A DNA stretch of 64,000 nucleotides, taken from Promethearchaeota archaeon (GTDB lineage Archaea; Asgardarchaeota; Thorarchaeia; Thorarchaeales; Thorarchaeaceae). The stretch lies in contig JBHLPF010000009.1 of the NCBI GenBank assembly GCA_048939765.1, forward strand, positions 9,590-73,589, given 5' to 3'. Position 1 is the first letter of the stretch. Each line of letters starts with the position of its first letter. Shown here piece after piece: positions 47,473-63,578 of the stretch. A program made the position numbers and the translations under genes. The notes under the pieces are model-generated. The model had not been told where the DNA came from. It ran no database searches and saw only the letters and a program-made list of their open reading frames with translations.

Positions 47473-48252
47473 ATGTCAGAGTCAGAACCCCTTATGCCTG
47501 CCCTCTTCGTTGGGCATGGATCACCCATGAATGGAATAGAGGACAACGAATTTGCGGAGAACTGGGAGAAGATTGCCGCTCAGATTCCTAAACCAAAGGC
47601 AATTCTCTGCGTTTCTGCTCACTGGGTTTCGCAAAATACACTCGTGTCAACAGCACCCCTGCCTGAAACAATTCACGACTTCTATGGATTCCCCGATGAG
47701 CTCTACAAACTGACCTATCCAGCTCCTGGTGCTCCTGAGCTTGCGATGCGGATTCAGGAGATTCTCAAGTCAAATCCGGTCTATCCAGATGAGTCGAGAG
47801 GTTTGGATCATGGTGCCTGGGTTGTACTACGGAGAATGTATCCAAATGCAGACATTCCAACCCTCCAACTGAGTCTGCACCAAGCATTGACGCCTCAGGA
47901 GCATTATGACATTGGTAGGGAGCTTCTTCAACTTAGAAGAGAAGGGGTCCTAATTCTGGGCAGTGGCAACATCGTGCATAATCTGGCGCTGGCAAGAATA
48001 AACCACACAGGATATCCTTGGGCCTATGAGTTCGATGAATATGTTAGAAAGAGAATAGATGCCGATGACCACAACTCACTCATTCACTATGAACTCATAC
48101 CGGACTCGGGCAAGGCATTTTGGACAAATGAGCACTATTTGCCACTCCTGTATGTACTTGCATTGAAACAGCCTCATGAGCAAGTCCGTCATTCAGCAGC
48201 TAAGGTCATCTATGGATCAATATCCATGCGCTGTGTTCTCATACGCGACTGA
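47473..48252 (+). CDS. ygiD: 4,5-DOPA dioxygenase-like extradiol dioxygenase (YgiD/LigB family)
   Basis: FVGHGSPMN, SAHW, TIHDFYGFP, GLDHGAW, GSGNIVHNL, EHYLPL. Confidence 0.93.
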   Translation: MSESEPLMPALFVGHGSPMNGIEDNEFAENWEKIAAQIPKPKAILCVSAHWVSQNTLVSTAPLPETIHDFYGFPDELYKLTYPAPGAPELAMRIQEILKSNPVYPDESRGLDHGAWVVLRRMYPNADIPTLQLSLHQALTPQEHYDIGRELLQLRREGVLILGSGNIVHNLALARINHTGYPWAYEFDEYVRKRIDADDHNSLIHYELIPDSGKAFWTNEHYLPLLYVLALKQPHEQVRHSAAKVIYGSISMRCVLIRD

Positions 48253-48395
48253 GTTCGCGCTTTCAGTATTTTTCCTATCTAATCTTTCAAGACGAAGCAA
48301 TAAGTGCTGTCGGAACGGTTTTGTTTCTAAGAAGGAACAGTTTTATTCCCTCACAGTGGATGTACCAAGAAGTAGTCTTTCGGTGGGTGAATATA

Positions 48396-48632
48396 ATGAT
48401 TACAGCCTTTATCATGGCAAAGATCGAGTCGGCAAAGGCCCGTGACGTGCTTATCCATGTCAGGGAGCTGGAAGAGGTTGAAGAAGCCCACCTGATTTAT
48501 GGTGCATATGACCTCTTGATCAAGGGTGTTTTCAAGACTCCAGAGTCCTTGAGCTCCTTTGTCGTAGATACCCTGCGAAAGGTTGATGGAGTGAAGGACA
48601 CAGTAACAAATGTCTGTGCTGCATCGGACTGA
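48396..48632 (+). CDS. Stand-alone Lrp/AsnC ligand-binding (RAM) domain protein
   Basis: V.EAHLIYGAYDLL..LRKVDGV..T.T. Confidence 0.88.
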   Translation: MITAFIMAKIESAKARDVLIHVRELEEVEEAHLIYGAYDLLIKGVFKTPESLSSFVVDTLRKVDGVKDTVTNVCAASD

Positions 48633-48668: not shown

Positions 48669-49169
48669 CTATTTGTCCTCCCAGTAGTATTCGAAGTCAC
48701 AGCAGTTGCGCTCTTCCATGAGAGTCGTAGACCTCTTCAATCTCATATTTGGATGAAGAGCTGGGGTAGCTGGGAAGTCCTGTTTGCAGTGAAGCAAATA
48801 TCCTATATCAGCTGCGTCAAGGTCATTGAATACCTTAGCGTAGATGCACTCTGTGACAATACAGATTGACTTGGCAGCGGTTTCCTCTGTGATTTCGACA
48901 ACTTCCATGCTGTCTTTGTTGAGAGCATCCACCCAATGTCTAAGCAGCACCTTCACGTCATCAAACGACTCTATTGGCCTATCCAAGGACTCAACGACGC
49001 TTCGCACATCATTCACTGCATTCTTCTCTGCCCAATCTGAAACAATCTCATGTGCCTTGTCCTTCCCCAAGACTTGCTCTAGTTCACGAATAAGGGACAC
49101 AAGCTTTGAGCTCTTGTCCTTGAAGTGTTCGTAGACAGTGATATTCATCCTATTCTGGAATATTGACAT
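48669..49169 (-). CDS. L-2-amino-thiazoline-4-carboxylate hydrolase-family protein
   Basis: VTECIYA..DIGYLL.CKQD..L.RSTTLM....CDF. Confidence 0.8.
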   Translation of the reverse strand: MSIFQNRMNITVYEHFKDKSSKLVSLIRELEQVLGKDKAHEIVSDWAEKNAVNDVRSVVESLDRPIESFDDVKVLLRHWVDALNKDSMEVVEITEETAAKSICIVTECIYAKVFNDLDAADIGYLLHCKQDFPATPALHPNMRLKRSTTLMEERNCCDFEYYWEDK

Positions 49170-49181
49170 AGTTCATTTCTC

Positions 49182-51065
49182 CTATTTGATGACAGCTTCT
49201 CCATCCCTTTCAAGACCAAGTCGCTTCAGAGTCTCCATCGTGGGGAGTCCTGTTTCCAAATCCCATCCTCGTTGTTCATAGTACTCATCAAGCATTTGAT
49301 CTAGCTCGACAACCTGTCCTGTTGAGGGACCCTTTGGCGCTCCTTCTTTGGTCAGTCTATCAGGGAGTTGGTCCTCGCGACGAGTGATACCTCGAGCAAC
49401 ATTGAACAATCGATTGAGATTTACAATGCGTTCTCCAATTTCCTGTAGTTCTTCGCTTGTTAGGTCTATGCCATTGTGTATCTTGAGAGCCTGAGCAATA
49501 TCATCATAGTAGAATTCAGGAGGAATCTGCGTTCCATACTTACATAGGCCAACGCTCTCGACCATGACCATAAAGTCCTCACATTCCTTGACCATAATCC
49601 CTTTGTATTTTGGATTGAGGCGGTCCGCCATTTCAGGTAGATATTGTTCCCCAAATCGTTCCTTGATCTCCTTGTCAAATCCTGCTTCATCGAGGACTGG
49701 GAACGCATACAGATGGTCTGCGCCTCTTGCTGCAGTGACTGCAGCCAGTCCCATTGATTTCTGAGCCCGTGGCTCTTGTCCTGCAATCTCTTGCTTCTTC
49801 ACAGTCATAACGAACTTCTCTGTTCCGCGACCAATCTTCGCCGCAGCTCGTGCACTGCCCTCCGCAAGGATATCACCAAAGCCCTCTCGCAGGGCAATCA
49901 TCTTGGTGAGCTTGACAATAGTTTCATGATTGCCCCAACTGAGATCGATGTCACTGGTGTCTTCAGCCGTCAGAAGTCCTTCATCCCACGCCTCCATTGC
50001 CCAAGATATGGTGGCACCGAGAGAAATAGTATCCATACCATACATGTTGGCCAGATGATGACTGTAGAGCACCGACTCTAGATTGTCATTTCCACAACGG
50101 GAACCGAGAGATGACTGTGACTCGAACTCCGGCGACCCACCGATGTATTTGTATGGGCCCTCCTTGACTCCGGTGTACCTGCCACATCGCTGCAGACAAC
50201 TCCAGTCAGACCTTGGCTTGACTAGATGCTTCTCTGTAATTGTGTGCCCACTGATCTTCTCAAAGCCCTCGAAGACTCCTTGGCGCATATTATAGCTTGG
50301 GAGCCTACCAATATGATTCATCAACTCGACCAGATTTGTAGTTCCATACTTGGCCCGTTCTTTTGTGAAGGGATTTGCCAGCATCCTCTCATAGAATATG
50401 TCCATCTGCTTGAGGTAGTTCTTGGAATCTGCAACCTCCAGCTTTCCAGACCCTCTCACCGAGATTGCTTTGAGTCTTTTTGAACCCATTACTGCGCCGA
50501 GTCCTGACCTCGCGGATGCACGGTCTCGGTCATTCATGATAGCTGCGAATCGAACCTTGTTCTCTCCTGCCTGTCCTATTGACAGCACTCTTGCTCTCTT
50601 GCTATGCTTCTCACGAATCCAATCATCCGTTTCAAAGACCGATGTGCCCCATATATCAGACGCATCTAGAAGTTCAACGGTGTCATTTTGGATATGGAGA
50701 TACACTGGGTCCGATGATGCTCCAGTGAAGATGATTGCATCATACCCAGCAAATTTCAGCTCAGCACCCCAGAATCCAGCCGCATGAGATTCTCCCCAGA
50801 TATCGGTTAGAGGTGATAGTGCAGCAACCACGTGACGCGACGCCTGCGGAAACATCGATCCAGTGAGAAGTCCAGTAGCAATTCCGAGCACATTCTTGGG
50901 GGATAGCGGACCAATTCCAACAGGAATGTTATCATATAGAACTCGTGAGAGATAGCCTGCTCCAAGGAGATACTCCCTGACCATCTCCTCTTCAACGGGT
51001 CTTTTCTCAATCTCACCCTTGGTCAGATCAATCCAGAGATTATTGCCTCCAATCCCCTTCATCAT
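49182..51065 (-). CDS. Aldehyde:ferredoxin oxidoreductase (W-pterin) family enzyme, copy 1
   Basis: SPLT..GES..G..G.ELKFAGYD, R.GLGAVMGSK.LKA, GMDTIS, EPR, RGADH, LDEYY..RGWD. Confidence 0.95.
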   Translation of the reverse strand: MMKGIGGNNLWIDLTKGEIEKRPVEEEMVREYLLGAGYLSRVLYDNIPVGIGPLSPKNVLGIATGLLTGSMFPQASRHVVAALSPLTDIWGESHAAGFWGAELKFAGYDAIIFTGASSDPVYLHIQNDTVELLDASDIWGTSVFETDDWIREKHSKRARVLSIGQAGENKVRFAAIMNDRDRASARSGLGAVMGSKRLKAISVRGSGKLEVADSKNYLKQMDIFYERMLANPFTKERAKYGTTNLVELMNHIGRLPSYNMRQGVFEGFEKISGHTITEKHLVKPRSDWSCLQRCGRYTGVKEGPYKYIGGSPEFESQSSLGSRCGNDNLESVLYSHHLANMYGMDTISLGATISWAMEAWDEGLLTAEDTSDIDLSWGNHETIVKLTKMIALREGFGDILAEGSARAAAKIGRGTEKFVMTVKKQEIAGQEPRAQKSMGLAAVTAARGADHLYAFPVLDEAGFDKEIKERFGEQYLPEMADRLNPKYKGIMVKECEDFMVMVESVGLCKYGTQIPPEFYYDDIAQALKIHNGIDLTSEELQEIGERIVNLNRLFNVARGITRREDQLPDRLTKEGAPKGPSTGQVVELDQMLDEYYEQRGWDLETGLPTMETLKRLGLERDGEAVIK

Positions 51066-51550
51066 ATCTCCTCCTTGTTGTACAGCTCATTCTCGTGCAT
51101 ACTATAGAGTGTTGATAGGCGACCGTCCGAATCCTTCTCATTCAGTTCACTCTCAGTGGTGATCCAGATTGCATTAACAGGGCATCGGTCAACACAATCT
51201 CCGCACTGGATGCATTTGATTGCCTTCTTGGTGTCTGGATGTAATCTGATTGCATAATAGGGGCATGCCTTGACGCACTCGCCGCTGCCTGTACACTTCT
51301 TGTTGTTCACAATGACAACACCCTTAGACGTGCGACTTATCGCCTTGTTTGGACAAGCAGCCATGCATGGAGCGTCTTCGCAGTTTCTACAAAAGAGGGG
51401 GAAATCAAGGCCTGGCTCAATTCTTACTGCTCTGACCCGAGACCAACGAGGGCCGATCACTTTTGAAAATCGCATGCTGCATACATTGACGCATATCATG
51501 CATCCTGTGCAGACTTCAGGGTCTCCAAACACGAACTTCAACTCAGTCAT
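51062..51550 (-). CDS. DmsB/HycB-like 4Fe-4S partner subunit
   Basis: CTGCMIC..C, CRNCEDAPC..CP, KCTGSGECVKACPY, KCIQC. Confidence 0.9.
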   Translation of the reverse strand: MTELKFVFGDPEVCTGCMICVNVCSMRFSKVIGPRWSRVRAVRIEPGLDFPLFCRNCEDAPCMAACPNKAISRTSKGVVIVNNKKCTGSGECVKACPYYAIRLHPDTKKAIKCIQCGDCVDRCPVNAIWITTESELNEKDSDGRLSTLYSMHENELYNKEEI

Positions 51551-51553
51551 TCT

Positions 51554-52912
51554 TCAGTCCTCAATTGGTGTCATACCTGTCATTGCTTGGAACCTTCCAT
51601 GTCCTGGCTTGACTAGCATCCTGTCATCCTCAAAAACTGGGGTGCCGCGGACAACAGTCATTGTTGGCGCTCCTTTCATTGTCATGCCTTCATACAGTGT
51701 CCAGCCACACTTTGAGAACATCATATCAGATGTCAACTTCTCCTCCTTCCAAGGGTCAATTATGACGAAATCTGCATCAGCACCAATAGCCAAAACACCT
51801 TTTCTTGGATAGAGGCCAAACAACTTTGCTGGATTTCTGGATGCAACATTCAATAGCCGCGTGAATGATATTCTTCCTTTGTTGACGCCTTCTGAGAGCA
51901 GCACTCTCAGTATCATTTGGACTCCATCAACACCTGACCAAGCTTCGCGAATGTCTTCAATCCCCGCTTCCTTCATCTCCAAGGGGCATGGTGCATGGTC
52001 ACTGACTGTCATATCGATTGTTCCGCGAAGTAGCGCTGACCATAGTGCAGACCTGTCAGCCTCTGCTCTTAGCGGCGGATTCATCTTGCTCCTCGGTCCA
52101 AGTCGGTTCATATCATCTCTTTGAAAGACCAAATGATGAGGGCATACCTCGGTGGTGACCATGGTCCCCTTCAGCTTGGCCCGCTCAACATCTGCCAAGC
52201 CCTCTCTGGTTGTGATATGTGCAACATGAAGATGGCCCCCTGTCAGCTCTGCAATTGAGGTGGCCTGCTTCACAGCGAGCTGTTCAGCTAGGTTTGGTCT
52301 GGCTAGTGAATGGCTTATTGGTGCATCCCATTCTCCTTCCATCTCTCGACCAAATTCGTCAAGCACGCCTTGATTCTCTGCGTGCAAGGTTATGTGTGCG
52401 CCACACTCCGAGGCAGTACTGAGTGCCTGAACCAATACGCCGTCACTAACTGGATATGGGTCACAGGTGAATGCCTTGAAAGCTGCAATGCCCTTCTCAA
52501 CCATGGCCGGAATCATGGTGTAATTATCAGAATTCAACATGCCTGCATAGAATGAGAAATCCACAACAGACATTGATTCACCTTGGGATATCTTTTCCTC
52601 CACCGCCTTGGGCGAATCAACCTGGTTAGTCAACGGCATGTCTATCACGGTTGTGACACCCCCCGCCGCAGCTGCACGCGAACCAGTGGTAAAATCTTCA
52701 TGACTCAGCATGGTGGGATCATGTAGGTGCGCATGTCCATCTATCAGTCCTGGAATGACGATTTTTCCTTCTGCATCAATGACGGTCGAGGCATCTGGCA
52801 AATGTTCATCGGTGGCAATACTGCAGATTCGACCAGCATCTATTCCAAGGCCACCTCTAGTTAGCCCTGACTCGAGCAGTAGCTTGGCATTCTTAACCAC
52901 AAGGTCTACCAT
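51554..52912 (-). CDS. Cyclic amidohydrolase (allantoinase/hydantoinase/dihydropyrimidinase-like)
   Basis: DGHAH, AAAGGVTT..DMP, FK, LHAE, HVAH, EVCPHH, KMNPPLR, SDHAP. Confidence 0.88.
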   Translation of the reverse strand: MVDLVVKNAKLLLESGLTRGGLGIDAGRICSIATDEHLPDASTVIDAEGKIVIPGLIDGHAHLHDPTMLSHEDFTTGSRAAAAGGVTTVIDMPLTNQVDSPKAVEEKISQGESMSVVDFSFYAGMLNSDNYTMIPAMVEKGIAAFKAFTCDPYPVSDGVLVQALSTASECGAHITLHAENQGVLDEFGREMEGEWDAPISHSLARPNLAEQLAVKQATSIAELTGGHLHVAHITTREGLADVERAKLKGTMVTTEVCPHHLVFQRDDMNRLGPRSKMNPPLRAEADRSALWSALLRGTIDMTVSDHAPCPLEMKEAGIEDIREAWSGVDGVQMILRVLLSEGVNKGRISFTRLLNVASRNPAKLFGLYPRKGVLAIGADADFVIIDPWKEEKLTSDMMFSKCGWTLYEGMTMKGAPTMTVVRGTPVFEDDRMLVKPGHGRFQAMTGMTPIED

Positions 52913-52944
52913 TATAGGCTGCCCCCTAACAATCATGGGATGGC

Positions 52945-53235
52945 CTAGCCGCCTCCCACTGGAGGGAAGAGGGCCACTGCATCCCCCTCTTCTAGCAGGG
53001 TGTCATACCCATCAAGTCGTTCTATACGAGTTCCATTAATCATACATTGATAGAATCGTTTCAGCTTGTCAGTTTCCTCATCTATCACAGTATCAATGAA
53101 CCGTCTTCCGTATTGTTCTTTTAGTTTCTCAAGCAAGCCCTTGATGTCATCAGCTTCAATCTCAGTACTTCTAGTCCCGACAGCCTCCCGCACGGTTGCA
53201 AAGAATTTCACAGTGACTACTGGCAAGCGTTTCAA
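52945..53235 (-). CDS. MoaD/SAMP ubiquitin-like sulfur carrier
   Basis: VKFFAT.RE..ING..LEEGD.VALFPPVGGG. Confidence 0.92.
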   Translation of the reverse strand: MKRLPVVTVKFFATVREAVGTRSTEIEADDIKGLLEKLKEQYGRRFIDTVIDEETDKLKRFYQCMINGTRIERLDGYDTLLEEGDAVALFPPVGGG

Positions 53236-53381
53236 CTCAGTTTTTCAACGTGGGTCTATGGCATTTTAATACTTATGAACGAGGATTATCATACGCTTTA
53301 GGTGTTCGTCAAATGGCTCTTGATGCACAGGAATTATTAGCTTGAGTGTTATTGCTTTAGCATCCGTTACCGTGACAAGTA

Positions 53382-54296
53382 GTGTCGAAAGAGGTTGGGC
53401 CAATGGAGATTGTGGTAATTGGACATCTGAGCAGGGATTTCACAATCACCCCTGAGAGGAGAATTGAAAACATCGGGGGCGGCCCCGCATATGCTATGAT
53501 TGCACCTAGGATTGGTGCCCTGGGCGCTGGAATTGTAAGTTGTGTGGGTGCGGACTTTGAGGATGAATATCTAAACGCTCTTGAAGATGCGGGACTCAAC
53601 ATCTCTGGAGTCCAGATACGAGGACAGAAGAGTACGAGGTTCATCAATGAATATGATGAAGAGGGAATTCGAACGCAGAGGGTTGAAAGCATAGGTCCCT
53701 CGATACGGCCTGATGACATTCTTCCTCAGCACAGGGATGCCAGCATCTATCACTTCAGTCCACTGACAGCTAGCGAGATCTCCTATTCGGTCATCAAGTC
53801 TGTGCGAGTGGGAGGCCCTCTGCTATCCATTGATTGTCAGGGCTTTCTTAGAGGAATCGAGGATGAGCAAATCATTGAGAGAGAATGGCTTGATAGAGAC
53901 GAGATTCTAGGACTGGCCGATGTTGTGAAATTTGATGAGGCAGAACTCAAACTGGCATATGATTCTCAGTCAGAGCTATCAGCAGTGACCGAAATCCTCA
54001 ACATCGGTCCGCGAATGGTCCTAGTGACACGGGACAGACGCGGGTCCACGGTTTATACTCGAAACACGCAGAAGGATATCCCCCTTGTATTGGCCAACGC
54101 TCAGACTGACCCGACAGGTTGCGGCGATGTATATGTCATTTCCTTTCTTCTGGAATACATGAGAACAGGTGACGTGAAGCGGGCGGGTCTTTTTGGTGCA
54201 ACGTGTTCCTCATTCAATGTGGAAACCGCAGGTCCGTTTGACCTACCGACCCGAGAACAGGTCGAGAGAAGGATGAAGCCCTACGTTCAGTCATAA
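53382..54296 (+). CDS. PfkB family carbohydrate/nucleoside kinase
   Basis: GG..AY, VG.D, IDCQG, DPTGCGD. Confidence 0.9.
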   Translation: MSKEVGPMEIVVIGHLSRDFTITPERRIENIGGGPAYAMIAPRIGALGAGIVSCVGADFEDEYLNALEDAGLNISGVQIRGQKSTRFINEYDEEGIRTQRVESIGPSIRPDDILPQHRDASIYHFSPLTASEISYSVIKSVRVGGPLLSIDCQGFLRGIEDEQIIEREWLDRDEILGLADVVKFDEAELKLAYDSQSELSAVTEILNIGPRMVLVTRDRRGSTVYTRNTQKDIPLVLANAQTDPTGCGDVYVISFLLEYMRTGDVKRAGLFGATCSSFNVETAGPFDLPTREQVERRMKPYVQS

Positions 54297-54324
54297 AGGG
54301 GAATCCTTTTTCGTCAGTTTATAT

Positions 54325-55530
54325 GTGAGCAAACCGGTGGAAGCAGTGCTAGATGATTTAGACTCACTAATGGAGAAACATGAGATAGATGGACTATTTG
54401 TCACCGGAAATGCATACAACACTCCAGACATCTATTGGCTGACTGGTTTCAGGTCGGGAGATGATATTACGTATGTGAAGAATCGAGGGGAGGAACCTAT
54501 TGTGGCTTCGTTCTTCCACACTCTGGAGCGAGTTCTGAAGGAAAGCCGAATACGGCGGACTCATGACTTGACTCAGGTCTACATCGGACTGTTACAGGAG
54601 GGGAAAAACGCGCGTGATAACATCGAGGTATTCGTGAAAGACACTATGAAGGAAGTCTTCACTGGTCAGATTGTTGGTGTACCTGATCACACTCCCGCTG
54701 AACAACTCATAGTCATTCAGAAAATGGGGTATGAGGTGAAAGTAGTTCCAAATCTGTTGCGTGAAGCTCGTGCCACGAAATCCGCAGCTGAGATTGATGC
54801 AATAAAAAAGGCTGGTGATGCAACCGTTGGTGGAATCACCAAAGTCCTTGAGATGGTTAAAGACTCAGCCATTGGTCCTAACAAGACACTGTTGTACAGG
54901 GGCGAGCCATTGACAGTCGGGCGGATGAAACTGGCACTTGAGCACTTTCTACTTGACCATGGTGCGGAGGCTGCAACGGATACAATCCTAGCTGTTGGAA
55001 CGAAGGCCTTCGACTGGCATTATTCAGGCGCTCCTGGTGATGAATTGAAAGCTGAACAACCCACCATTCTAGATGTCTTTCCTCGGCTAAAACAGGAACG
55101 CTATATCGCTGATGTAACTCGTACTTTTGTGAAGGGTTCAGTCAGTGAGAAACTATGTGACATGTTTGAGTCTGTTCAGGGGGCGGCTGGTTCATCTATT
55201 GATGCTATAAAGGATGGTGCCAAGATTGATGATGCAAATATGGCCTGCGGTGACCGTCTGAAACGCTCTGGGTACGACTCACGCCGGCTTAATCCTCAAG
55301 CCTCTGAGGGTATGACGCACGGGCTTGGACATGGGATTGGTCTTGAAGTGCACGAGAACCCATCACTGTACGATCGAGAGGCATACTTTGAGTCAGGTCA
55401 TGTGTTGGCTATTGAACCAGGCGTCTATTTGAAAGCAGTAGGCGGTGTACGAATAGAGAATGACTATCTAGTCAGTACTGACAGAGCTGTTCTCTTAACC
55501 AAAGGGCTTGATGAGATTCTGTATTTCTAG
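54325..55530 (+). CDS. Xaa-Pro aminopeptidase (M24) family
   Basis: D..YIADVTRT, HGLGHGIGLEVHE, IEPGVY, GVRIE. Confidence 0.92.
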   Translation: MSKPVEAVLDDLDSLMEKHEIDGLFVTGNAYNTPDIYWLTGFRSGDDITYVKNRGEEPIVASFFHTLERVLKESRIRRTHDLTQVYIGLLQEGKNARDNIEVFVKDTMKEVFTGQIVGVPDHTPAEQLIVIQKMGYEVKVVPNLLREARATKSAAEIDAIKKAGDATVGGITKVLEMVKDSAIGPNKTLLYRGEPLTVGRMKLALEHFLLDHGAEAATDTILAVGTKAFDWHYSGAPGDELKAEQPTILDVFPRLKQERYIADVTRTFVKGSVSEKLCDMFESVQGAAGSSIDAIKDGAKIDDANMACGDRLKRSGYDSRRLNPQASEGMTHGLGHGIGLEVHENPSLYDREAYFESGHVLAIEPGVYLKAVGGVRIENDYLVSTDRAVLLTKGLDEILYF

Positions 55531-55547
55531 TCGAATGCTGTAGACCA

Positions 55548-56642
55548 TTAATCCATGCTTAGTGCAGAATATGGGCAAACCGAGATGCACATGCCGCACC
55601 CTTCGCACTTCTCTGAGTCGATAGAGAAAGTCCCCTTTCCTTTATCCAGGTTGATCGCGTGGTACACACATGACTTTGGGCAAAGTCCACACCTTGTACA
55701 TTTCTCGAGATCTATTTTTGGGGGCGGTTCTAGTTTCACTCCCTTTTTGAGATGCTTGAGGGCCATTCCCTTGACGTCACTCACAGAGTCATATCTATGC
55801 TCATCTAGCCAATTGTCGATCTCTCGAACAATCTGACCATATACTGTGTCACCCTGCAGGATTGCTGCTGTGCATACCTCAACCGCAGATGCTCCTGCCA
55901 TCAAGAATTCAATTGCGTCCTCTCCTGTCGTGACCCCACCCACAGCTATGACTGGCTTCTTGATGCTCCTGGCAATATCCGCGATACACTTCATTGCGAT
56001 GGGTTTGAGAGATGCGCCACTCATCCATCCCTCTCCCAGGTCGCTTCCAAGGACCGGCTTACCTGTTTCAATGTCAATCCTAAGAACTGGACCGTATGTG
56101 TTGATTCCAACCACCCCATCAACAAATGGCTCCAAGTCCTTGGCTATCTTAGCGACATCGATCTTAGGACTAAGCTTGGCAAAGATGGGTATGTCCACAG
56201 ATTCCCTTAGAGCTCTGGCTATCTCGACATGCCCTCCGACATAATGCGTGCTGAACTCGATTGCATTGACCCCCTTTGCCTGAATCTTTGGTGCGATTTC
56301 TGCAACTTCTTCGGGTGTATAGCCTACACTCGCAATTAATGGAAGTCCTGAGCCCAGAGCGATCTCATACTCCTTCTCTAGCCATCGCTCCAGAGGCAAT
56401 TCGCTCCATAGCTCTGCATTCAGTATTCCTCGCCGTGACTCTCGCCGTCCACTACCCAGCGCAGCCATGTTGGGCTTGGGTACATCTGCAGGTTTGACAC
56501 TGACCGTCTTTGCAACGAGTCCACCTGCACCTCCAGCTGCAGCATTGAGTAGAGTGATTCCGTTTCTTGAGGTGGGTCCTGCTGCAGTGAAAACAGGATT
56601 TCTGAACCTCATTCCAGATATCTCAACTCTAAGGTCTGCCAT
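55548..56642 (-). CDS. PreA/dihydroorotate dehydrogenase-like FMN enzyme with C-terminal 2[4Fe-4S] domain
   Basis: NP..AAGP, AKT, NAELWSE, AKLSP, INT, G.SG..LKP, GGV, CTRCGLC..C, CEGCGMCISVCP. Confidence 0.88.
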   Translation of the reverse strand: MADLRVEISGMRFRNPVFTAAGPTSRNGITLLNAAAGGAGGLVAKTVSVKPADVPKPNMAALGSGRRESRRGILNAELWSELPLERWLEKEYEIALGSGLPLIASVGYTPEEVAEIAPKIQAKGVNAIEFSTHYVGGHVEIARALRESVDIPIFAKLSPKIDVAKIAKDLEPFVDGVVGINTYGPVLRIDIETGKPVLGSDLGEGWMSGASLKPIAMKCIADIARSIKKPVIAVGGVTTGEDAIEFLMAGASAVEVCTAAILQGDTVYGQIVREIDNWLDEHRYDSVSDVKGMALKHLKKGVKLEPPPKIDLEKCTRCGLCPKSCVYHAINLDKGKGTFSIDSEKCEGCGMCISVCPYSALSMD

Positions 56643-56689
56643 GCAATATTGTCATGAGTCCTTCAACATAAGAGTTCCCAGACATGAAT

Positions 56690-57646
56690 CTAGTCGTCGG
56701 GAAATCTAACTGGATTTGCCATTCCCACTTCCACAGTGTTCTCATTCCACTGCTTGATCTTCTCGGACGCTAATCGAAGGTAATCCACTTGTCTTGGGTT
56801 CAGCCCCAGCTGAGAACAGACAAGCGCATCCAACTCAAGGGTGTCGACCCCACTCCAAATCATTCCCATATCTCGATGTATTGCGGGATGAAGAATACTA
56901 TCCAGGGTTTCTGAGGTTGAGTAAACCGCCTCGATGATTCCTTTCACATCAAACAGTGCATTATACACCTTATTGATGTCCACAATATTCATACAAAGTA
57001 GCGAATCATCATCGCCGTGGTATTTTCCTCTCCAGGGACTTGGAATCATTCCAAACAGGTTCTTCAGAGTCAGCGACACGTGCAGTGCCTTCAGTGATCG
57101 CTTGGGTTTGGCTAGACTGAGCAGGGTGCCTCCCCTCAACTCATAGAGCCGTTCAGGAACAAGAGCATAGAATTCCGAATTCTCAACCATTGATGAGCAT
57201 GCCTCTACTTGAGCAGCAATCATATCCGAATCGCACATTCGGTTGGCCCATAGTTCTTCTGAGAGATTGAGATATTCAACCCCATGCTTCTCAAGAACCC
57301 TGTCAATCCCTGAATGTCGGAGAAACCATTTGTCGTTCTCTCTGAAATCATCTCTCGTCTGATTTCCCAACCTTTTGAGGAACTGATCATCTCTAGGTCC
57401 TCTGTGCTCAATGAATAGACTGGTGCGCCAAGCCGCATAACTCTCGACAATCACAACCTCACCTTCAACTGCGGAAAGCACCCAGTCTAGAATCTCACTC
57501 TCCGTGTACACCATTGAAGATGACCAGTTGGGTTTGATGATTACAGGTGGTTCCAATTTGAGTCCGGAGACGATCTCCATGAATGTGTCTCTTGAGCCCT
57601 CATCGGTGAACTTTGCAGGGCCGAGATCAATGATTCCCCCTGACAT
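56690..57646 (-). CDS. DUF362 family protein
   Basis: IIKPN, VIVES, SLAKPK..SLTLKNLFG, LDA. Confidence 0.8.
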   Translation of the reverse strand: MSGGIIDLGPAKFTDEGSRDTFMEIVSGLKLEPPVIIKPNWSSSMVYTESEILDWVLSAVEGEVVIVESYAAWRTSLFIEHRGPRDDQFLKRLGNQTRDDFRENDKWFLRHSGIDRVLEKHGVEYLNLSEELWANRMCDSDMIAAQVEACSSMVENSEFYALVPERLYELRGGTLLSLAKPKRSLKALHVSLTLKNLFGMIPSPWRGKYHGDDDSLLCMNIVDINKVYNALFDVKGIIEAVYSTSETLDSILHPAIHRDMGMIWSGVDTLELDALVCSQLGLNPRQVDYLRLASEKIKQWNENTVEVGMANPVRFPDD

Positions 57647-57693
57647 GGCACCGATGTTTTTACCCTTGCTCTTGGACTTTTCGGAACGCTGGA

Positions 57694-59625
57694 CTACTTG
57701 GCCAACATATTGCGCTTGCCAAGGTCCTCGATCACATATCCAAGACTCAGCTCCTCGAGCTTCTCTTTCTTTGGATAGCCTGTTTCTCTGTCGCATCCCC
57801 TGTAGTCATAGTATTCATCGAGCATCTCATCTAGGTCCGGGAGGCCTCCCTTCGAAGGCCCTGTGGGCATAGGCTCTTTCAGAAGTCGTCTGGGCAGGGT
57901 CTCCTCTTTTCTTGTTATACCCAGTCGATGATTGTATGCTCGTCTCAAGTGGTTGATGCGTTCGGCAGTCTGTTTGACAAACCTAGGTTGCGACCATTCC
58001 TCCATTCCTGTAAGAGGAGCTATCACATTGGTGAATGTATCAAAGTAATAGATGGGCGGCCACATGGTGCCGTACTTGCATATCACAGCGCTGTCAACGA
58101 GTGCGTAGAGATCCTCGATATCCCAGACTACCTCGCCCTTGTGTTTTGGTGACATTATGTCAAGTATTGCTTCAGTCTTCTCATCATCAAATCGAGCCTT
58201 GACGATGTCCGGGTATCCCAGTTCTTCGAGGCTTGAGAGGCTCCGCAGATGATCTGCTCCTCGCACATTCGTTGCATAGGTGAGACCGATTGACTGATGT
58301 GCCCTAGGGTCTTGACCGGAGGCTTCCAGTCCCTTGACATGCACAGCATACATCCATGCATCTCCGCCGATTATCTCAGCAGCCTTACGGACACCCTTAG
58401 AGAGAAGGTCGCCGAAACCATCCCGTTTCGCAATCTTCTCTACGAGCTCCACCATGGAGTCGACATTCCCCCATGAGAGGTCGAGACCGTCTGTATCCTT
58501 CTTGGTGATGATACCTTTCTCCCAGAGCTCCATAGCAAATCCAATGCTCTTCCCACAGGAGATCGTGTCCATCCCGAGAAGATCACATCTTGTGCCGAGG
58601 TGGAAGACCGACTCAATATCATTGTTGAGGCAATTGGAGCCAAAAGCCATGATAGTCTCATACTCTGGTCCTCCAGCAGGACCGTACGCGAACTTCCCCT
58701 CCTTGACCCGATAGATGTACTTGCAGCCTACTTCGCATCCATGACATGCTTCTTGTGCAACTCTGTACTTCTTCGCAATAATCTCAGGGCCAATGTCATC
58801 CGCATTCTCGTAGAATCCTGTCCAATGGTTCTTTGTTGGCAATCTTCCAATCTCGTTTATTATCGCTACAAGGTCTGTTGTCCCGTATTTCCTGAGTGAT
58901 GCAAGGGACTCTGTCCAAATTGGGTCACAGACTCTCTGCATCTCAATCTCATTTGCCTCGAGATACTTATCCATATCATAGGCCTCAAGGCCTAGTGAAC
59001 CGGAGGCTGCTATTGCTTTCACATTCTTTGAGGCCAATACCGTGCCGAGACCTGCCCTTCCCGCCGCCCTATAACGGTCCACGATGATGCTTGAGTAGAG
59101 AACGCCATTCTCTCCGGCAGGTCCAATTATACCTGTCTTGACCTCAGGGTCTCTATGCTCCTCACGAATCATATCCATAGTCACATCTGTCTCTCGGCCC
59201 CATAGATGGCTGGCATCAAGCAGCTCAGCTTCTCCATCTCGCAGAAAGAGATAGACCGGCTTTGGTGAACGACCCTTGAAGATCACGAAGTCATATCCAG
59301 CGTATTTGATCTCAGGCCCCAAGAAACCACCCACGTGGGATTCGGCCCAGACGCCAGTCAAGGGCCCTTTGGTAGCAAACATCATCCTGCCAGAAGGCGA
59401 AAACATCACACCAGTCAAAGGGCCTGTTCCGACAACCAATACATTATCTGGAGACAGTGGATCTGTTTCTGGACCTGTTTCTTCCCAAAGGATTCTGGCT
59501 GCCACGCCAGTGCCGCCCAGATATAGCCTTGCCCATTCCTTCTCCATCTCACGCTTGTGTACCTTGCCTTTGGTGAGATCAACCTCTGCATAGTGGCCTG
59601 CGTATCCTTTGTATGGAAATGTCAT
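57694..59625 (-). CDS. Aldehyde:ferredoxin oxidoreductase (W-pterin) family enzyme, copy 2
   Basis: PLTG..ES..GG, AGR.GLG.V.ASKN.KA, CHGCEVGC, GPEYET, GMDTIS, DPR, RGADH. Confidence 0.95.
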   Translation of the reverse strand: MTFPYKGYAGHYAEVDLTKGKVHKREMEKEWARLYLGGTGVAARILWEETGPETDPLSPDNVLVVGTGPLTGVMFSPSGRMMFATKGPLTGVWAESHVGGFLGPEIKYAGYDFVIFKGRSPKPVYLFLRDGEAELLDASHLWGRETDVTMDMIREEHRDPEVKTGIIGPAGENGVLYSSIIVDRYRAAGRAGLGTVLASKNVKAIAASGSLGLEAYDMDKYLEANEIEMQRVCDPIWTESLASLRKYGTTDLVAIINEIGRLPTKNHWTGFYENADDIGPEIIAKKYRVAQEACHGCEVGCKYIYRVKEGKFAYGPAGGPEYETIMAFGSNCLNNDIESVFHLGTRCDLLGMDTISCGKSIGFAMELWEKGIITKKDTDGLDLSWGNVDSMVELVEKIAKRDGFGDLLSKGVRKAAEIIGGDAWMYAVHVKGLEASGQDPRAHQSIGLTYATNVRGADHLRSLSSLEELGYPDIVKARFDDEKTEAILDIMSPKHKGEVVWDIEDLYALVDSAVICKYGTMWPPIYYFDTFTNVIAPLTGMEEWSQPRFVKQTAERINHLRRAYNHRLGITRKEETLPRRLLKEPMPTGPSKGGLPDLDEMLDEYYDYRGCDRETGYPKKEKLEELSLGYVIEDLGKRNMLAK

Positions 59626-60113
59626 GGTTCAGCCTCCTGCTCTTCGTGACTGTATAAGGGAAATAAGACGCTAATTCCTCTGGCGCGGCTCCTGAAAACA
59701 TCTGATTCCGCGCCTAGGAACTCTATGGCTCCATAGTCACATGCTTTGACACAGGCTGGGTTGTGCCAGCATAGATCGCATTTCACAGCCTTTCTGGCTA
59801 CTGGATCAATCTCGATGCCGCCATAGATACATGCCGTGACGCAGTTTCCGCATCCTATGCAGTCCTCACTGTGGACATAGAGTGTGCCATGTTCATTTCT
59901 TACTATTGCACCCGTTGGACATGCATCTACACATAGCGCGTGCTCACACTGCAGACAGACCATTGGTACGATGGTGCCTTCTGCCTCATTCTTCAGAATC
60001 GTGATCCTTGACCTTGCAGGATTGAACGTCTTGGTCTTCGCGGTCGAGCAGGCTAGTTCGCAGTTCCTGCAGCCTGTGCATTTGTCAACATCAATCGCGA
60101 GTAAGCTCTTCAA
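59622..60113 (-). CDS. DmsB/HycB-like 4Fe-4S partner subunit
   Basis: CTGCRNCELAC, CLQCE..CVDACP, CIGCGNC..AC, KCDLC..PACV. Confidence 0.92.
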   Translation of the reverse strand: MKSLLAIDVDKCTGCRNCELACSTAKTKTFNPARSRITILKNEAEGTIVPMVCLQCEHALCVDACPTGAIVRNEHGTLYVHSEDCIGCGNCVTACIYGGIEIDPVARKAVKCDLCWHNPACVKACDYGAIEFLGAESDVFRSRARGISVLFPLYSHEEQEAEP

Positions 60114-60344
60114 GTTGTATGAACTCTCCGTTCTCTCTCGTGTGGCCCTCTTCTCGGAGGCAGTATGTCCTTTAAGTTGTTGCCATTCTGGAAGTCTGTT
60201 TTATCTGTCCAAGTAATGCTCAAGTATACTGGATTGAAGTACTGAAACCATTCCGGTGCAGGTATAAGGAGCTTTAATGACCTGTGAAATCGCTGGAAGT
60301 TGTGTGGATTAGAAGGGTGCCAATACTACCCGTGATTCGGAACT

Positions 60345-62120
60345 GTGAACGCAATGGACAAAGTACGGAAACGTTTCAGAGAAATAGCAGATGATATGCT
60401 CATCCCAGTTCTTGAATTTGATACAGACCTTAATCTAAGATATGCAAATCCCAAGGCACTAGAGCTTTTCAAGATGGAGATGAAAGATGTATACAACAGG
60501 ATACACCTTGACACGTTTGTCGCCGAAGAGCAGGTGGATCTTGTTCATCGAGGACTCGTGCAACTTGAAGCCGGCGAGAAACCCACTTCATTGAGCTTAC
60601 GTGTTGTCAGAAAGGACAATGTACAGGTTCCTACTCAGATCTACTCTGATAAGATAGAACACGATGGCAAAGTAATCGGATTCGTCGCGTACATAGTTGA
60701 TTTGTCGAGGCGCGAAGCCTTTGAGGAGAAGATCGAGGAACGAAAAGACCTTCTTGAGTATATAGTGGAGTACTCGACCTTCAGTGGTATTGCTATTATC
60801 GATGACAAATACAGACTCGAATATGTGAACGATAAACTGTGCGACATTGTTGGGATGAGGAGAGCGGAACTCATCGGATTCGATTTCCGTAGCCTTGTTC
60901 ATCCTGACAGTCTGGAGTTGGTTTCTGACCGATACCGGAGGAGACAACTTGGAGAAGATGTGCCGCCCTCCTACGAGGTCAAAATAAGAAGAGGAGATGG
61001 TAGTGCCAGAGACGTTCGAATCCATGTGACAACAATGACAGGTAAGAATGGTGCAACCAAGTCTATCACGCAGGTAATGGACATAACGGAGCAAAAAGCT
61101 GATAGACGACGCCTTGAGGAGTCGGAGCATAACTATCGGCGACTGGTAGAAACCATGACCGCAGGGATGGGAATTGATGATGAGAATGGCATAATCGTAT
61201 ACACAAATGATGCTCTCAATGAAATGCTTGGCTATGAAGAGAATGAGCTCATTGGTAAACATGGGACGACGATATTTCATGACGTAGCTGAAGAGAAGTA
61301 TAAGATGCGAGCTGATGCAAGACGAAGGGGTGAGGTAGAACACTATGAAACAACTCTTGTGTCAAAATCCGGAGACCTGATTCAGGCCATGGCATCGGCT
61401 GGACCAATCCGCGACCCAGAAGGCAATTACACGGGAAGCTTTGCTATATTTACTGACGTGTCAGCCCTAAAGGCTGCAGAGAATGAATCGAGATTCTTAT
61501 TGGATTTGCTGATGCACGATGTAGGCAATCAAATGCAGTTAATCCTAGCTGGAGGCGACTTTCTCGCTCGAGAATCTACTCCTGAAGAGATAGTGCGAGC
61601 CAAGCAATATGTCCTCGATGGAGCGCACAGATGTCTGACCTTGATTGGGAAGGTGAGAAAGGCAGAGGAAACAAAAGCCGACCCTGTGGTTGCAACAGAC
61701 CTGGTGAAGGTGTTGGAAGGGGAGATTGAGCTACTGGCTAGCCAATACAACATAACTCCAAACCTCACTGGGATTCCGAGAAAGGTCAAGGTGTTTGCAG
61801 ATGGAGCTCTCTCACAGCTTCTCTGGAATCTGATAGAGAATGGTGTCAGACATAATACAGGAGACGATCCACAGATTTGGATAAGTGGGAAGATTAGCCA
61901 TGATGCGTTCAAGCTGATTGTTGCAGATAATGGTCCCGGTCTGAATGTCTCCAAGAAACAGGCACTGTTTGATGCCGGACGCAGATATGGGGGTGTAGGC
62001 CTGCATCTTGTGCGTCGACTAGCTGACAAGTACGGTGCCAAGTTGGATGTGCATGATCGAGTGAAGGGTCAGCCTGAAAAGGGACTTGAAGTATCTATTG
62101 AGTTTCGACTCGCCGAATAA
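60345..62120 (+). CDS. Soluble multi-PAS sensor histidine kinase
   Basis: Three PAS-like repeats; H-box HDVGN; NLIENG, DNGPG, GVGL. Confidence 0.92.
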   Translation: MNAMDKVRKRFREIADDMLIPVLEFDTDLNLRYANPKALELFKMEMKDVYNRIHLDTFVAEEQVDLVHRGLVQLEAGEKPTSLSLRVVRKDNVQVPTQIYSDKIEHDGKVIGFVAYIVDLSRREAFEEKIEERKDLLEYIVEYSTFSGIAIIDDKYRLEYVNDKLCDIVGMRRAELIGFDFRSLVHPDSLELVSDRYRRRQLGEDVPPSYEVKIRRGDGSARDVRIHVTTMTGKNGATKSITQVMDITEQKADRRRLEESEHNYRRLVETMTAGMGIDDENGIIVYTNDALNEMLGYEENELIGKHGTTIFHDVAEEKYKMRADARRRGEVEHYETTLVSKSGDLIQAMASAGPIRDPEGNYTGSFAIFTDVSALKAAENESRFLLDLLMHDVGNQMQLILAGGDFLARESTPEEIVRAKQYVLDGAHRCLTLIGKVRKAEETKADPVVATDLVKVLEGEIELLASQYNITPNLTGIPRKVKVFADGALSQLLWNLIENGVRHNTGDDPQIWISGKISHDAFKLIVADNGPGLNVSKKQALFDAGRRYGGVGLHLVRRLADKYGAKLDVHDRVKGQPEKGLEVSIEFRLAE

Positions 62121-62183
62121 GCTCATTGCTGACCACAATCATTATGTCGTACGCTCTATCTGATTAGAGCCGGAGGCGTAAGC

Positions 62184-63578
62184 ATGTCAGTGGACTCGAT
62201 TCTGATAAAGAACGGATATGTCCTCACAATGGACGCGCGACGTCGTATCATTGAGGATGGCTCAGTCCTAGTTGAAGGTCAGAAGATTACCAGAGTTGGT
62301 AAAACTGATGAGCTTGCAAAGGAAAAGGCGGAGCTTGTAATCGATGCCAATAATATGATAGTCATGCCGGGACTGATTGATACGCATATGCACTTGGCAC
62401 AGGCGTTGATACGTGGCTGCGCAGACGATGTCTCTCTTGTTGACTGGCTGAAGAGCTATGTCTGGGTCCTCCAGGGTAACTTCACAAAAGAAGACGGAAG
62501 AGTGTCTGCGGAGCTCTGCATGGCAGAGATGATTCGAACTGGTACAACCTCGTTCATTGAATGCATGATTCATACGCGTTATGGCTTTGACGGAATCGCA
62601 CAAGCCGTCAAGGACGTTGGCATGCGGGCCGCACTCTCAAAGATAATTATGGACTCCACAGGTTATGCAGATAGTCCTGACATCATGTATGCAGGAATGG
62701 TCGAGGACAAGGACGCCTGTCTCTCTGAAACTGCCCAGATGCATGCCAAGTGGCATGGTGCGGCGGACGGTCGACTTCAAGTCTGGTATGGCCTCAGGTC
62801 TCTAGGTGCAGTAACTCCTGAGCTATTCCGAGAAGTAGCAGGCCTAGCCCGAGAAAAGGAGACTAGAATGACCATGCACTTAGGCGAGGTCATCGATGAC
62901 GTCCGCTTTGTCCGGGATAACTACGACATGACTCTCACAGAGTTCGCAGAGGAGAACAATCTCTTGGGATCCGACATGGTGTTTGCACATGGCATTCACT
63001 TCGATGATGACGACCTCGGACGGCTTGCATCCTCCCAGTCGAATGTTTCTCATTGCCCTGCTAGCAATATGAAGCTAGCATCTGGCTTTGCTAGGGTGCC
63101 AAAGATGTTGGAGATGGGAGTACCAGTCTCTCTTGGATGCGATGGTGGTCCTAGCAACAATACGTACGATATGGTACGCGAAATCCGTCTGGCTGCCTTG
63201 ATTCACAAGGCGAAGGTTGACGACCCCCTCGTGGTGACCGCTGAACAGGCTCTTGAGATGGCAACACTCGGCGGCGCAAAGGCATTGGGAGTGGCTGACA
63301 CTGTTGGTTCACTTGAATCAGGAAAGCTGGCAGATATAATTCTCATCGATATGCATGACCTCGGCTACACGCCAGTGACGAACCCTGTTTCCAATCTTGT
63401 CTATTCAGGTAGTGGACATACTGTTGACACCGTCATCGTGAATGGGGCTCTCCTGATGAGAGGCAAGAAGCTACTGACTCTGGATGAGGAGTCGGTCATG
63501 GAACGCGCATTGAAACACAGCGGGCCGCTTCTTCAGCGAGCTGGAATCGAGATCCAGCCCAAATGGCCTATCGAGTGA
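62184..63578 (+). CDS. Metal-dependent amidohydrolase/deaminase (TrzA/AtzA/guanine-8-oxoguanine deaminase-like)
   Basis: PGLIDTHMHLAQ, GTT, MHLGE, AHG, HCP.SNMKL, GCDG, GKLAD. Confidence 0.9.
   Translation: MSVDSILIKNGYVLTMDARRRIIEDGSVLVEGQKITRVGKTDELAKEKAELVIDANNMIVMPGLIDTHMHLAQALIRGCADDVSLVDWLKSYVWVLQGNFTKEDGRVSAELCMAEMIRTGTTSFIECMIHTRYGFDGIAQAVKDVGMRAALSKIIMDSTGYADSPDIMYAGMVEDKDACLSETAQMHAKWHGAADGRLQVWYGLRSLGAVTPELFREVAGLAREKETRMTMHLGEVIDDVRFVRDNYDMTLTEFAEENNLLGSDMVFAHGIHFDDDDLGRLASSQSNVSHCPASNMKLASGFARVPKMLEMGVPVSLGCDGGPSNNTYDMVREIRLAALIHKAKVDDPLVVTAEQALEMATLGGAKALGVADTVGSLESGKLADIILIDMHDLGYTPVTNPVSNLVYSGSGHTVDTVIVNGALLMRGKKLLTLDEESVMERALKHSGPLLQRAGIEIQPKWPIE

Follow-up and report, generated by a model that had tools for sequence, protein, structure and literature searches.

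Positions 48669–63578 of the window (the whole stretch of 64,000 nucleotides analysed here, on contig C71 of a Thorarchaeota assembly of 3.37 Mb that is 88.5% complete) carry genes for two oxidoreductases of the aldehyde oxidoreductase (AOR) family, AOR1 and AOR2, each accompanied by a polyferredoxin gene, together with genes for a PreA-like iron-sulfur flavoprotein, a cyclic amidohydrolase and a TRZ/ATZ-type deaminase. Judging from the encoded proteins and from their neighbourhoods in other genomes, this segment may represent the Thorarchaeota version of a widespread island, partly related to the reductive uric-acid pathway of bacteria, that serves to break down a purine-type nitrogen heterocycle anaerobically; we give this reading a probability of about 0.5. 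The island itself is more than a chance juxtaposition, as its gene order is kept over nine genera and its core recurs across phyla.

Genes were identified by open reading frame listing combined with Pfam and NCBIfam profile searches, which recovered every gene that an earlier note on this DNA, made from the letters alone, had listed in the region, and added an M24 metallohydrolase gene (54325–55530, plus strand) that it had overlooked. The genes are arranged in four transcription units. Unit 1, on the minus strand, comprises MoaD, the cyclic amidohydrolase, polyferredoxin, AOR1 and an ATC-hydrolase-family protein with gaps of 3–12 nt, the stop and start codons of polyferredoxin and AOR1 overlapping by 4 nt. 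Unit 2 (plus) encodes a PfkB kinase followed by the M24 hydrolase, unit 3 (minus) polyferredoxin, AOR2, a DUF362 protein and the PreA-like protein, and unit 4 (plus) a PAS histidine kinase followed by the TRZ/ATZ deaminase (TRZ below). The genes central to the argument are:

49182–51065, minus strand: AOR1, island type 1 (AFOR_N, E 2.5e-72; AFOR_C, E 1.5e-127)
51062–51550, minus strand: polyferredoxin partner of AOR1, 4x[4Fe-4S] (multiple Fer4 families)
51554–52936, minus strand: cyclic amidohydrolase of the allantoinase/hydantoinase/dihydroorotase type (NCBIfam models, all below cut-off)
55548–56642, minus strand: PreA-like protein (PF01180, DHO_dh barrel, plus C-terminal 2x[4Fe-4S] Fer4)
57694–59625, minus strand: AOR2, island type 2 (AFOR_N, E 9e-72; AFOR_C, E 4.9e-122)
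59622–60113, minus strand: polyferredoxin partner of AOR2 (Fer4 families; 4-nt overlap with AOR2)
62184–63578, plus strand: TRZ/ATZ-type (COG0402) deaminase with an HMHLAQ motif (best NCBIfam model 5'-deoxyadenosine deaminase)

Within the same Thorarchaeota family orthologues of the PreA-like protein are 66–96% identical, and the full gene order is kept in nine genera at 50–85% protein identity, with differing flanks. It runs from an AsnC-domain gene through AOR1, polyferredoxin, amidohydrolase and MoaD, then PfkB and M24, then PreA-like, AOR2 and polyferredoxin, to the PAS kinase and TRZ. A pattern search with an alignment of seven sequences, taking one genome per species, gave 80 loci, 43 of the Thor type and 37 from outside Thorarchaeota, which were annotated with a panel of reference proteins for features within 10 kb; many of the surveyed contigs are short, and the feature counts are lower bounds. 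In the 37 non-Thorarchaeota loci the PreA-like gene is 48–54% identical to that of the window. They come from Hermod-, Heimdall- and Baldrarchaeota, Bathyarchaeia, Korarchaeia, other Thermoproteota, Geothermarchaeota and Hadarchaeota among archaea, and from Coprothermobacterota, Bacillota and Anaerolineae among bacteria. The recurrent core, found in at least ten archaeal and bacterial lineages, consists of polyferredoxin, AOR and the PreA-like Fe-S flavoprotein. Co-localisation elsewhere, on which the earlier note had staked its proposal, is thus observed in many genomes and phyla. The counts were as follows:

At least one AOR: 31/37 non-Thorarchaeota loci, 35/43 Thor-type loci
Three AORs: 8/37 and 0/43
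AOR directly upstream of the PreA-like gene: 22/37 and 14/43
SsnA-like gene: 24/37 and 0/43
Cyclic amidohydrolase: 15/37 and 23/43
TRZ-like gene: 14/37 and 21/43
OTC-like carbamoyltransferase: 14/37 and 0/43
M24: 0/37 and 36/43
PfkB: 0/37 and 30/43
PAS kinase: 0/37 and 25/43
DUF362: 0/37 and 1/43
ATC hydrolase: 0/37 and 3/43

Since M24, PfkB and PAS kinase genes are present in Thor-type loci only, they are Thorarchaeota additions to the island.

The pathway that offers itself for comparison is the anaerobic degradation of urate described in bacteria (bioRxiv 10.1101/2025.05.19.654654 and 10.1101/2025.04.24.650524). According to these two preprints urate is dehydroxylated to 2,8-dioxopurine by XdhD/DOPDH, YgfK reduces the ring, SsnA and HyuA open the two rings, and YgeW with YqeA, followed by YgeY and YgeX, complete the route with formation of ATP and pyruvate. 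In C. difficile the role of YgfK belongs to UacX, an FMN protein resembling PydA that lacks an NAD(P)H domain and is thought to depend on ferredoxin (same preprints). Several islands outside Thorarchaeota contain genes of this type. The amidohydrolase adjoining their PreA-like gene has SsnA as its best model (401–411 bits against a cut-off of 444), the Coprothermobacterota island encodes a YgeY-family member (411 bits, cut-off 321) and the Bacillota island a carbamate kinase (424 bits, cut-off 358). Genes for OTC/AOTC-like carbamoyltransferases are also present; they were tried as YgeW orthologues and rejected, scoring 143–199 bits against cut-offs of 453–500, with OTC/AOTC models best. Likewise, the PALP gene of a related metagenome contig, a candidate for YgeX, proved to be threonine-synthase-like. 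One Thermoproteota island is preceded by a gene for a binding protein of the PnrA/Bmp type, a family named for a purine-nucleoside receptor. A Hadarchaeon contig combines amidohydrolase, SsnA-like, PreA-like, XdhC, MocA, molybdate-transporter and MoaD genes with a three-subunit xanthine dehydrogenase (XDH), for which XdhA is the best model, and an extended island of Hadarchaeota encompasses PreA-like, SsnA-like, amidohydrolase plus carbamate-kinase, OTC-like, AOR2-type and polyferredoxin genes. In Hadarchaeum yellowstonense there is a second, diverged copy of the module (contig C22, L131) with TRZ-like, polyferredoxin, cyclic amidohydrolase, AOR, polyferredoxin, PreA-like (38%) and SsnA-like (33%) genes. 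Two copies in one genome suggest that paralogous islands act on different substrates.

In the 3.4 Mb of the Thorarchaeota genome that holds the window, 13 matches to the AOR family were counted. AOR1 and AOR2 match both AFOR_N and AFOR_C over their full length and thereby belong to the AOR/WOR family. Maximum-likelihood analysis of 48 sequences placed the AORs of the islands in a single clade (SH-aLRT 99), divided into three orthologous types, with seven further AOR paralogues of the same genome lying outside. Type 1 (SH-aLRT 100) includes AOR1. Type 2, to which AOR2 belongs, is the one found directly upstream of the PreA-like gene across phyla, and type 3 lies downstream of that gene in other phyla, its Thorarchaeota copy being on contig C8. 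All three types are represented in both Asgard archaea and Thermoproteota, and enzymes of the two bacterial islands fall within types 1 and 2. The tree was built without characterised reference AORs; these were compared by bit scores against solved structures, where both window enzymes matched best to 9MQX, 1AOR, 8C0Z and 9G7J and far less well to FOR, BamB and WOR5.

Four second-shell residues, Thr243, Glu313, Tyr427 and His448, are conserved in the family according to PMC12096430, and Tyr427 was proposed there to hold or position the aldehyde carbonyl. Alignment to 1AOR (site table) revealed that Thr243, Glu313 and His448 are kept in the island clade and that the position of Tyr427 is occupied by Gln in 38 of 38 clade members and in five further Hadarchaeal ones (43 in total), so that AOR1 and AOR2 lack the complete second-shell set of AOR sensu stricto. 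At this position the genome's other AOR paralogues have Tyr, His, Trp, Val or Gly. The island enzymes make up a dedicated clade with its own active-site signature, apart from these paralogues, an outcome in favour of the earlier note, which had proposed an AOR/WOR phylogeny as a check. The ligands of the proximal [4Fe-4S] cluster (Cys288, 291, 295 and 494 of Pf AOR) are four cysteines in AOR2, and Asp, Cys, Cys and Cys in AOR1; Asp replaces the first cysteine in 10 of the 12 type-1 enzymes, AOR1 included, and the same site of three Cys and one Asp is known from WOR5/ASOR (PMC12096430). Sequence does not distinguish tungsten from molybdenum in the active site of an AOR. An apparent in-frame TAG in two type-1 orthologues is only the regular stop codon, past which the search had continued. 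The AOR1 polyferredoxin has a YdhY-type ferredoxin-like protein as its best NCBIfam match, and its gene is kept beside type-1 AORs; the AOR2 polyferredoxin has 16 cysteines, conserved in an alignment, for four [4Fe-4S] clusters. Of the AOR paralogues of the genome, five adjoin a polyferredoxin gene, and the Trp form resembles the WOR4 state of PMC12096430.

The PreA-like protein retains the ring-binding motifs LNxEL and INT of pig DPD (1GT8) and the C-terminal two-cluster domain, but the catalytic-Cys loop NLSCP of DPD is replaced by a shorter EFSTHY. In the alignment with 1GT8 the segment AIEFST---HYVG stands opposite ALELNLSCPHGMG, with no catalytic Cys or Ser. Proteins of this "STHY" form fall into a clade of their own when representatives at 50% identity are compared; the short loop runs through the clade, and neither His133 nor Tyr134 varies in it. 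With PF01180 plus 2x[4Fe-4S] and no NAD(P)H domain, the architecture fits the published description of UacX; homology to YgfK was considered and dropped, as there is no significant similarity to the E. coli protein. No gene for a PreT or PyrK partner is present in the island and GltD-like genes occur on other contigs only, which agrees with the statement of the earlier note that a PreT module is missing. The PreA-like protein is a candidate ring reductase fed by ferredoxin or polyferredoxin, in the role of YgfK or UacX. A second, longer PreA-like gene (404 aa) is situated on contig C22, without obvious partners.

A survey of 40 related Asgard genomes registered strong matches to the island AOR clade in 24/24 members of the Thorarchaeota family, in a single genome of the Hermod type and in 0/15 genomes of 12 further Asgard families; the STHY clade has nearly the same phyletic pattern. 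Because only two or three independent lineages are involved, this co-occurrence is supportive rather than statistical.

Among the hydrolases, the cyclic amidohydrolase scored 350–357 bits with the allantoinase, 342 with the dihydroorotase and 325 with the hydantoinase model of NCBIfam. With E. coli HyuA it shares 31% identity and an aligned set of ligands (HxH, Lys, His, His and Asp), and it is 46% identical to the Hadarchaeal amidohydrolase that adjoins SsnA-like and PreA-like genes; on these grounds it is a candidate for opening a hydantoin ring, as HyuA does. For TRZ the 5'-deoxyadenosine deaminase model gave 403 bits (cut-off 522) and the SsnA model 219; identity is 22% to E. coli SsnA and 27% to GuaD, among structures TRZ comes closest to MTA/SAH deaminase and 8-oxoguanine deaminase, and orthologues with 50–54% identity are found in islands of Hermod- and Heimdallarchaeota. 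Equivalence with SsnA was therefore rejected, and given its proximity to deaminases TRZ is read as a feeder enzyme, a candidate deaminase of aminopurines or purine nucleosides. The SsnA-like gene of this genome is located on contig C69 (8003–9325) and scores best with the SsnA model (362 bits, cut-off 444). It is followed by an Amidohydro_2 gene, and a 477-aa DUF362 protein is encoded 3 kb away (L038:3388-10319); proteins of the DUF362 family may belong to the same metabolism. Another DUF362 paralogue lies near an OTC-like gene on contig C13. YgeW, YqeA, YgeY and YgeX have no counterpart within the window. Other contigs of the genome carry the OTC-like gene (C13) and a gene for a carbamate kinase that is 47% identical to YqeA (C27); YgeY gave weak matches and YgeX none.

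Absence of XDH from this genome, suggested by the earlier note as a check, is consistent with both searches: at 88.5% completeness, no match to PF02738 was found, nor any tblastn match with E. coli XdhA, XdhD or the Hadarchaeal XDH as query, and hence no XDH-family dehydroxylase of the XdhD/DOPDH kind. Members of the XDH family were not found in one Hermod-type and one Baldrarchaeota genome either. A canonical cluster for reductive pyrimidine catabolism is present on contig C42 (L039:6615-10719), with a cytidine/dCMP-type deaminase, a dihydropyrimidinase-like protein (37% identical to HyuA), a CN-hydrolase of the beta-ureidopropionase type and a class-III aminotransferase. Since pyrimidines have this separate set of genes, purine-type substrates are the better reading of the island, and the pyrimidine substrate that the earlier note had also entertained is unlikely.

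The island genes and their counterparts elsewhere in the genome can be arranged into a tentative route. Aminopurines or their nucleosides would be converted by TRZ to oxopurines, whose ring carbons would be hydroxylated or dehydroxylated by the dedicated AORs (types 1 and 2 of the window and type 3 on C8), tasks that belong to XDH and DOPDH in bacteria. These enzymes would exchange electrons through four-cluster polyferredoxins, and the polyferredoxin of AOR2 might hand electrons to the PreA-like protein, whose 2x[4Fe-4S] domain and FMN would receive them for reduction of the ring. The six-membered ring would then be opened by the SsnA-like hydrolase from contig C69 and the resulting hydantoin by the cyclic amidohydrolase of the AOR1 operon. 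Ureido groups could be removed by the M24 hydrolase, or by carbamoyltransferase and carbamate kinase, whose genes lie outside the island in this genome and within it in other phyla. Starting from hypoxanthine, such a scheme would be balanced in electrons, two hydroxylations releasing four and one dehydroxylation with one ring reduction consuming four, and the three pterin-enzyme steps from hypoxanthine would match the three AOR types.

Our best guess is that the AORs act on the ring itself by hydroxylation or dehydroxylation and do more than supply electrons from aldehydes. They form a specialised branch, which may carry out a ring chemistry for which no report in this family was met in the literature searched: the words "purine" and "heterocycl" have zero occurrences in the 2025 review of tungsten enzymes (PMC12096430), and full-text searches returned no paper linking AOR with ssnA or hydantoinase and no published description of the island. 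A bolder version, which we hold tentatively and with the odds somewhat against it, is that the Gln427-type branch with its three types would hydroxylate and dehydroxylate purine carbons regiospecifically, with type 2 hard-wired through its polyferredoxin to the FMN reductase, and would so support a balanced, XDH-free purine fermentation at the ferredoxin level in Asgard and other anaerobic archaea.

Several observations weigh against breakdown of a purine-type ring by the proposed route, or against the part assigned in it to the AORs. Both the cyclic amidohydrolase and the SsnA-like protein stay below the curated family cut-offs, an SsnA-like gene is present in none of the 43 Thor-type loci, and the PreA-like protein is devoid of the catalytic Cys loop. 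Carbamoyltransferases of the related islands are of the OTC/AOTC type and not YgeW, and no YgeX orthologue was found, only ThrC-like PLP enzymes. The AORs give 370–430 bits with the solved genuine aldehyde oxidoreductases 9MQX, 1AOR and 8C0Z and keep the acid-base residues of aldehyde oxidation. Finally, an XDH-family gene is present in three of five genomes with an AOR island, and Hadarchaeota have both XDH-linked islands and Gln-type AORs of the clade. Strict complementarity of the two families is thereby ruled out, and since they coexist the AORs need not hold the job of XDH. The urate-type chemistry expected in the earlier note finds a parallel in the pathway-type genes of related islands, but its suggestion that AORs stand in place of XDH does not hold strictly.

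These points bring to the fore an alternative that we regard as unlikely though serious, namely that a purine-type ring is degraded but the AORs are ordinary aldehyde:ferredoxin oxidoreductases, an electron-input module standing in for PreT or for the NAD(P)H domain of YgfK. Aldehydes derived from fermentation or from the pathway would be oxidised, and low-potential electrons would flow via polyferredoxin to the PreA-like reductase. Such a function accords with the retention of Thr243, Glu313, His448 and the cluster ligands and with true AORs being the closest solved relatives, and a donor complex would be well served by the invariant order of polyferredoxin, AOR and PreA-like genes, often with overlapping stop and start codons; the AOR of Aromatoleum likewise works with a polyferredoxin, together with a flavin subunit (PMC12096430). 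Where XDH coexists with the AOR clade, as in several genomes and in one case within a Hadarchaeal island, it may be XDH that hydroxylates. However, conservation of three orthologous AOR types across phyla in one island is hard to explain for a generic donor, the residue thought to hold the aldehyde carbonyl is Gln in 43/43 clade members examined, the known pathway has no aldehyde intermediate (bioRxiv 10.1101/2025.05.19.654654, 10.1101/2025.04.24.650524), and in this, the Hermod-type and the Baldrarchaeota genomes no XDH was found that could hydroxylate the ring.

Less probable still is a different substrate, for instance a pyrimidine, 5-substituted hydantoin, allantoin, pterin or a nicotinate-type compound, in which case the likeness to urate degradation would reflect shared superfamilies only. 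Near-equal scores of the cyclic amidohydrolase with allantoinase, dihydroorotase, hydantoinase and ErtD models leave room for that, as do the loop of the PreA-like protein, unlike that of every characterised relative, the scores of the SsnA-like, HyuA-like and carbamoyltransferase proteins, which fall short of the cut-offs for curated orthologues or lie outside them, and the pterin and triazine hydrolases in the TRZ family. Purines are nevertheless favoured by the amidohydrolase beside the PreA-like gene, which consistently scores best with the SsnA model, by a true YgeY-family member in the Coprothermobacterota island, by the resemblance of the Hadarchaeal-island XDH to XdhA, by the separate pyrimidine cluster of this genome and by the proximity of TRZ to purine-nucleoside and 8-oxoguanine deaminases. 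That functionally unrelated genes came together by chance is hardly credible: the richness of the genome in AOR paralogues and the lineage-specific or variable M24, PfkB, PAS-kinase, DUF362 and ATC-hydrolase genes might be explained in this way, but not synteny over nine genera with changing flanks, a core shared by at least ten lineages, a dedicated AOR clade and its phyletic co-occurrence with the PreA-like clade.

Like the reductive 2,8-dioxopurine pathway, the island unites a pterin oxidoreductase with a candidate Fe-S flavoprotein ring reductase (PF01180 barrel without an NAD(P)H domain, as UacX is described), candidate amidohydrolases of the SsnA and hydantoinase types and putative ureido-cleaving enzymes; genes for carbamoyltransferase, carbamate kinase and YgeY are located either in related islands or at other places in this genome. 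It differs in that its pterin enzymes are AOR-family proteins of three types, each with a polyferredoxin, whereas the bacterial ones belong to the XDH family; M24, PfkB and PAS kinase are added and the SsnA-like gene is off the island in Thorarchaeota; the reductase has no Cys loop; and among the island genes none of the selenium-cofactor trait (yqeB/yqeC) was noticed. With AOR sensu stricto (1AOR, Aromatoleum AorAB(C) 8C0Z, WOR5/ASOR) the island enzymes share the two-domain fold, the [4Fe-4S] site, three of the four second-shell residues (Thr243, Glu313, His448) and a four-cluster polyferredoxin partner, but the clade has Gln for Tyr427, Tyr452 is not kept, and the genomic context is one of heterocycle amidohydrolases and a ring reductase rather than aldehyde-producing pathways. 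Aromatoleum AorC is an FAD subunit, whereas the flavin partner in the island is a PreA-like FMN barrel. That barrel with its C-terminal 2x[4Fe-4S] domain is common to PreA/PreT and the clostridial ferredoxin-type PydA, and the ring-binding Asn of LNxEL and the INT motif are shared with DPD; EFSTHY with the invariant His-Tyr instead of NxSCP, the lack of PreT and the neighbouring AOR and polyferredoxin genes set the island protein apart. Class II benzoyl-CoA reductase BamBC also joins an AOR-family protein to a polyferredoxin for non-aldehyde chemistry on an aromatic ring; the window AORs, however, score about 420 bits with AOR sensu stricto and about 235 with BamB, and the island has no bifurcation module of the Bam type.

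If the AORs do act on the ring, this would be the first heterocycle-hydroxylase chemistry in their family. Anaerobic purine breakdown was worked out only in 2025, in bacteria only, and there depends on selenium-activated molybdenum hydroxylases, so archaeal islands doing the same job would add a new catalytic role to a family otherwise known for aldehydes, sulfonates and benzoyl-CoA. Several unexplained AOR paralogues of Asgard archaea, Bathyarchaeia and Korarchaeia would acquire a testable substrate, and nucleic-acid bases would be indicated as a source of carbon, nitrogen and energy for these sediment archaea. The Gln-for-Tyr signature provides a simple marker of the AOR clade.

The other genes of the island and its edge are:

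48321–48632, plus strand: stand-alone AsnC/Lrp ligand-binding domain, 103 aa (PF01037, E 5.6e-14)
48669–49169, minus strand: ATC_hydrolase-family protein, 166 aa (PF14196, E 1.4e-15)
52945–53235, minus strand: MoaD/SAMP-type small sulfur carrier (TIGR01687, 72.6 bits, cut-off 49.5)
53382–54296, plus strand: PfkB-family kinase (PF00294)
54325–55530, plus strand: M24 metallohydrolase, prolidase/aminopeptidase P type, dinuclear (PF00557, E 2e-35)
56690–57646 (listed frame to 57796), minus strand: DUF362 protein (PF04015, partial match, E 5e-10)
60345–62120, plus strand: soluble three-PAS histidine kinase (PAS domains and HATPase_c)

The AsnC/Lrp-domain gene adjoins AOR1 in Thorarchaeota relatives and was registered in 16 of the 43 Thor-type loci; its product is a possible sensor of small molecules at the island edge. 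The MoaD/SAMP-type protein probably serves synthesis of the pterin cofactor, and MoaD-like genes accompany 27/43 Thor-type and 17/37 other loci. Nearest to the PfkB kinase among solved structures is the MJ0406 kinase, a weak match (E 3e-16), and the protein is possibly a nucleoside or sugar-phosphate kinase. All five metal ligands of the M24 protein align with those of P. horikoshii prolidase 1WN1. Because they are all kept, a metal-free amidinohydrolase of the creatinase kind was rejected, and the protein is either a candidate for late cleavage of an amide or ureido bond or an unrelated peptidase. The PAS histidine kinase is a candidate regulator, specific for Thorarchaeota. The ATC_hydrolase-family gene is a variable accessory found in some relatives only, and the DUF362 gene between AOR2 and the PreA-like gene is a recent insertion at the genus level. 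As listed (56690–57796), the DUF362 frame overlaps AOR2 by 103 nt; its true start is probably Met51 of this frame, near position 57646.

The genes past position 63578 are unrelated, among them those for an ABC-2 transporter and a UDP-glucose dehydrogenase. Some 4 kb past the window end (L001:4491-5453, plus strand) a 320-aa protein with a weak OTCace match (E 2e-7) is encoded, the ABC-2 transporter and UDP-glucose dehydrogenase genes intervening between it and the island. On the other side, at 47473–48252 of the window (plus strand), lies a LigB-family gene scoring 283 bits with the NCBIfam model of 4,5-DOPA extradiol dioxygenase (cut-off 233); it has no synteny to the island in relatives and represents an O2-dependent ring-cleavage family in an archaeon that otherwise looks anaerobic.

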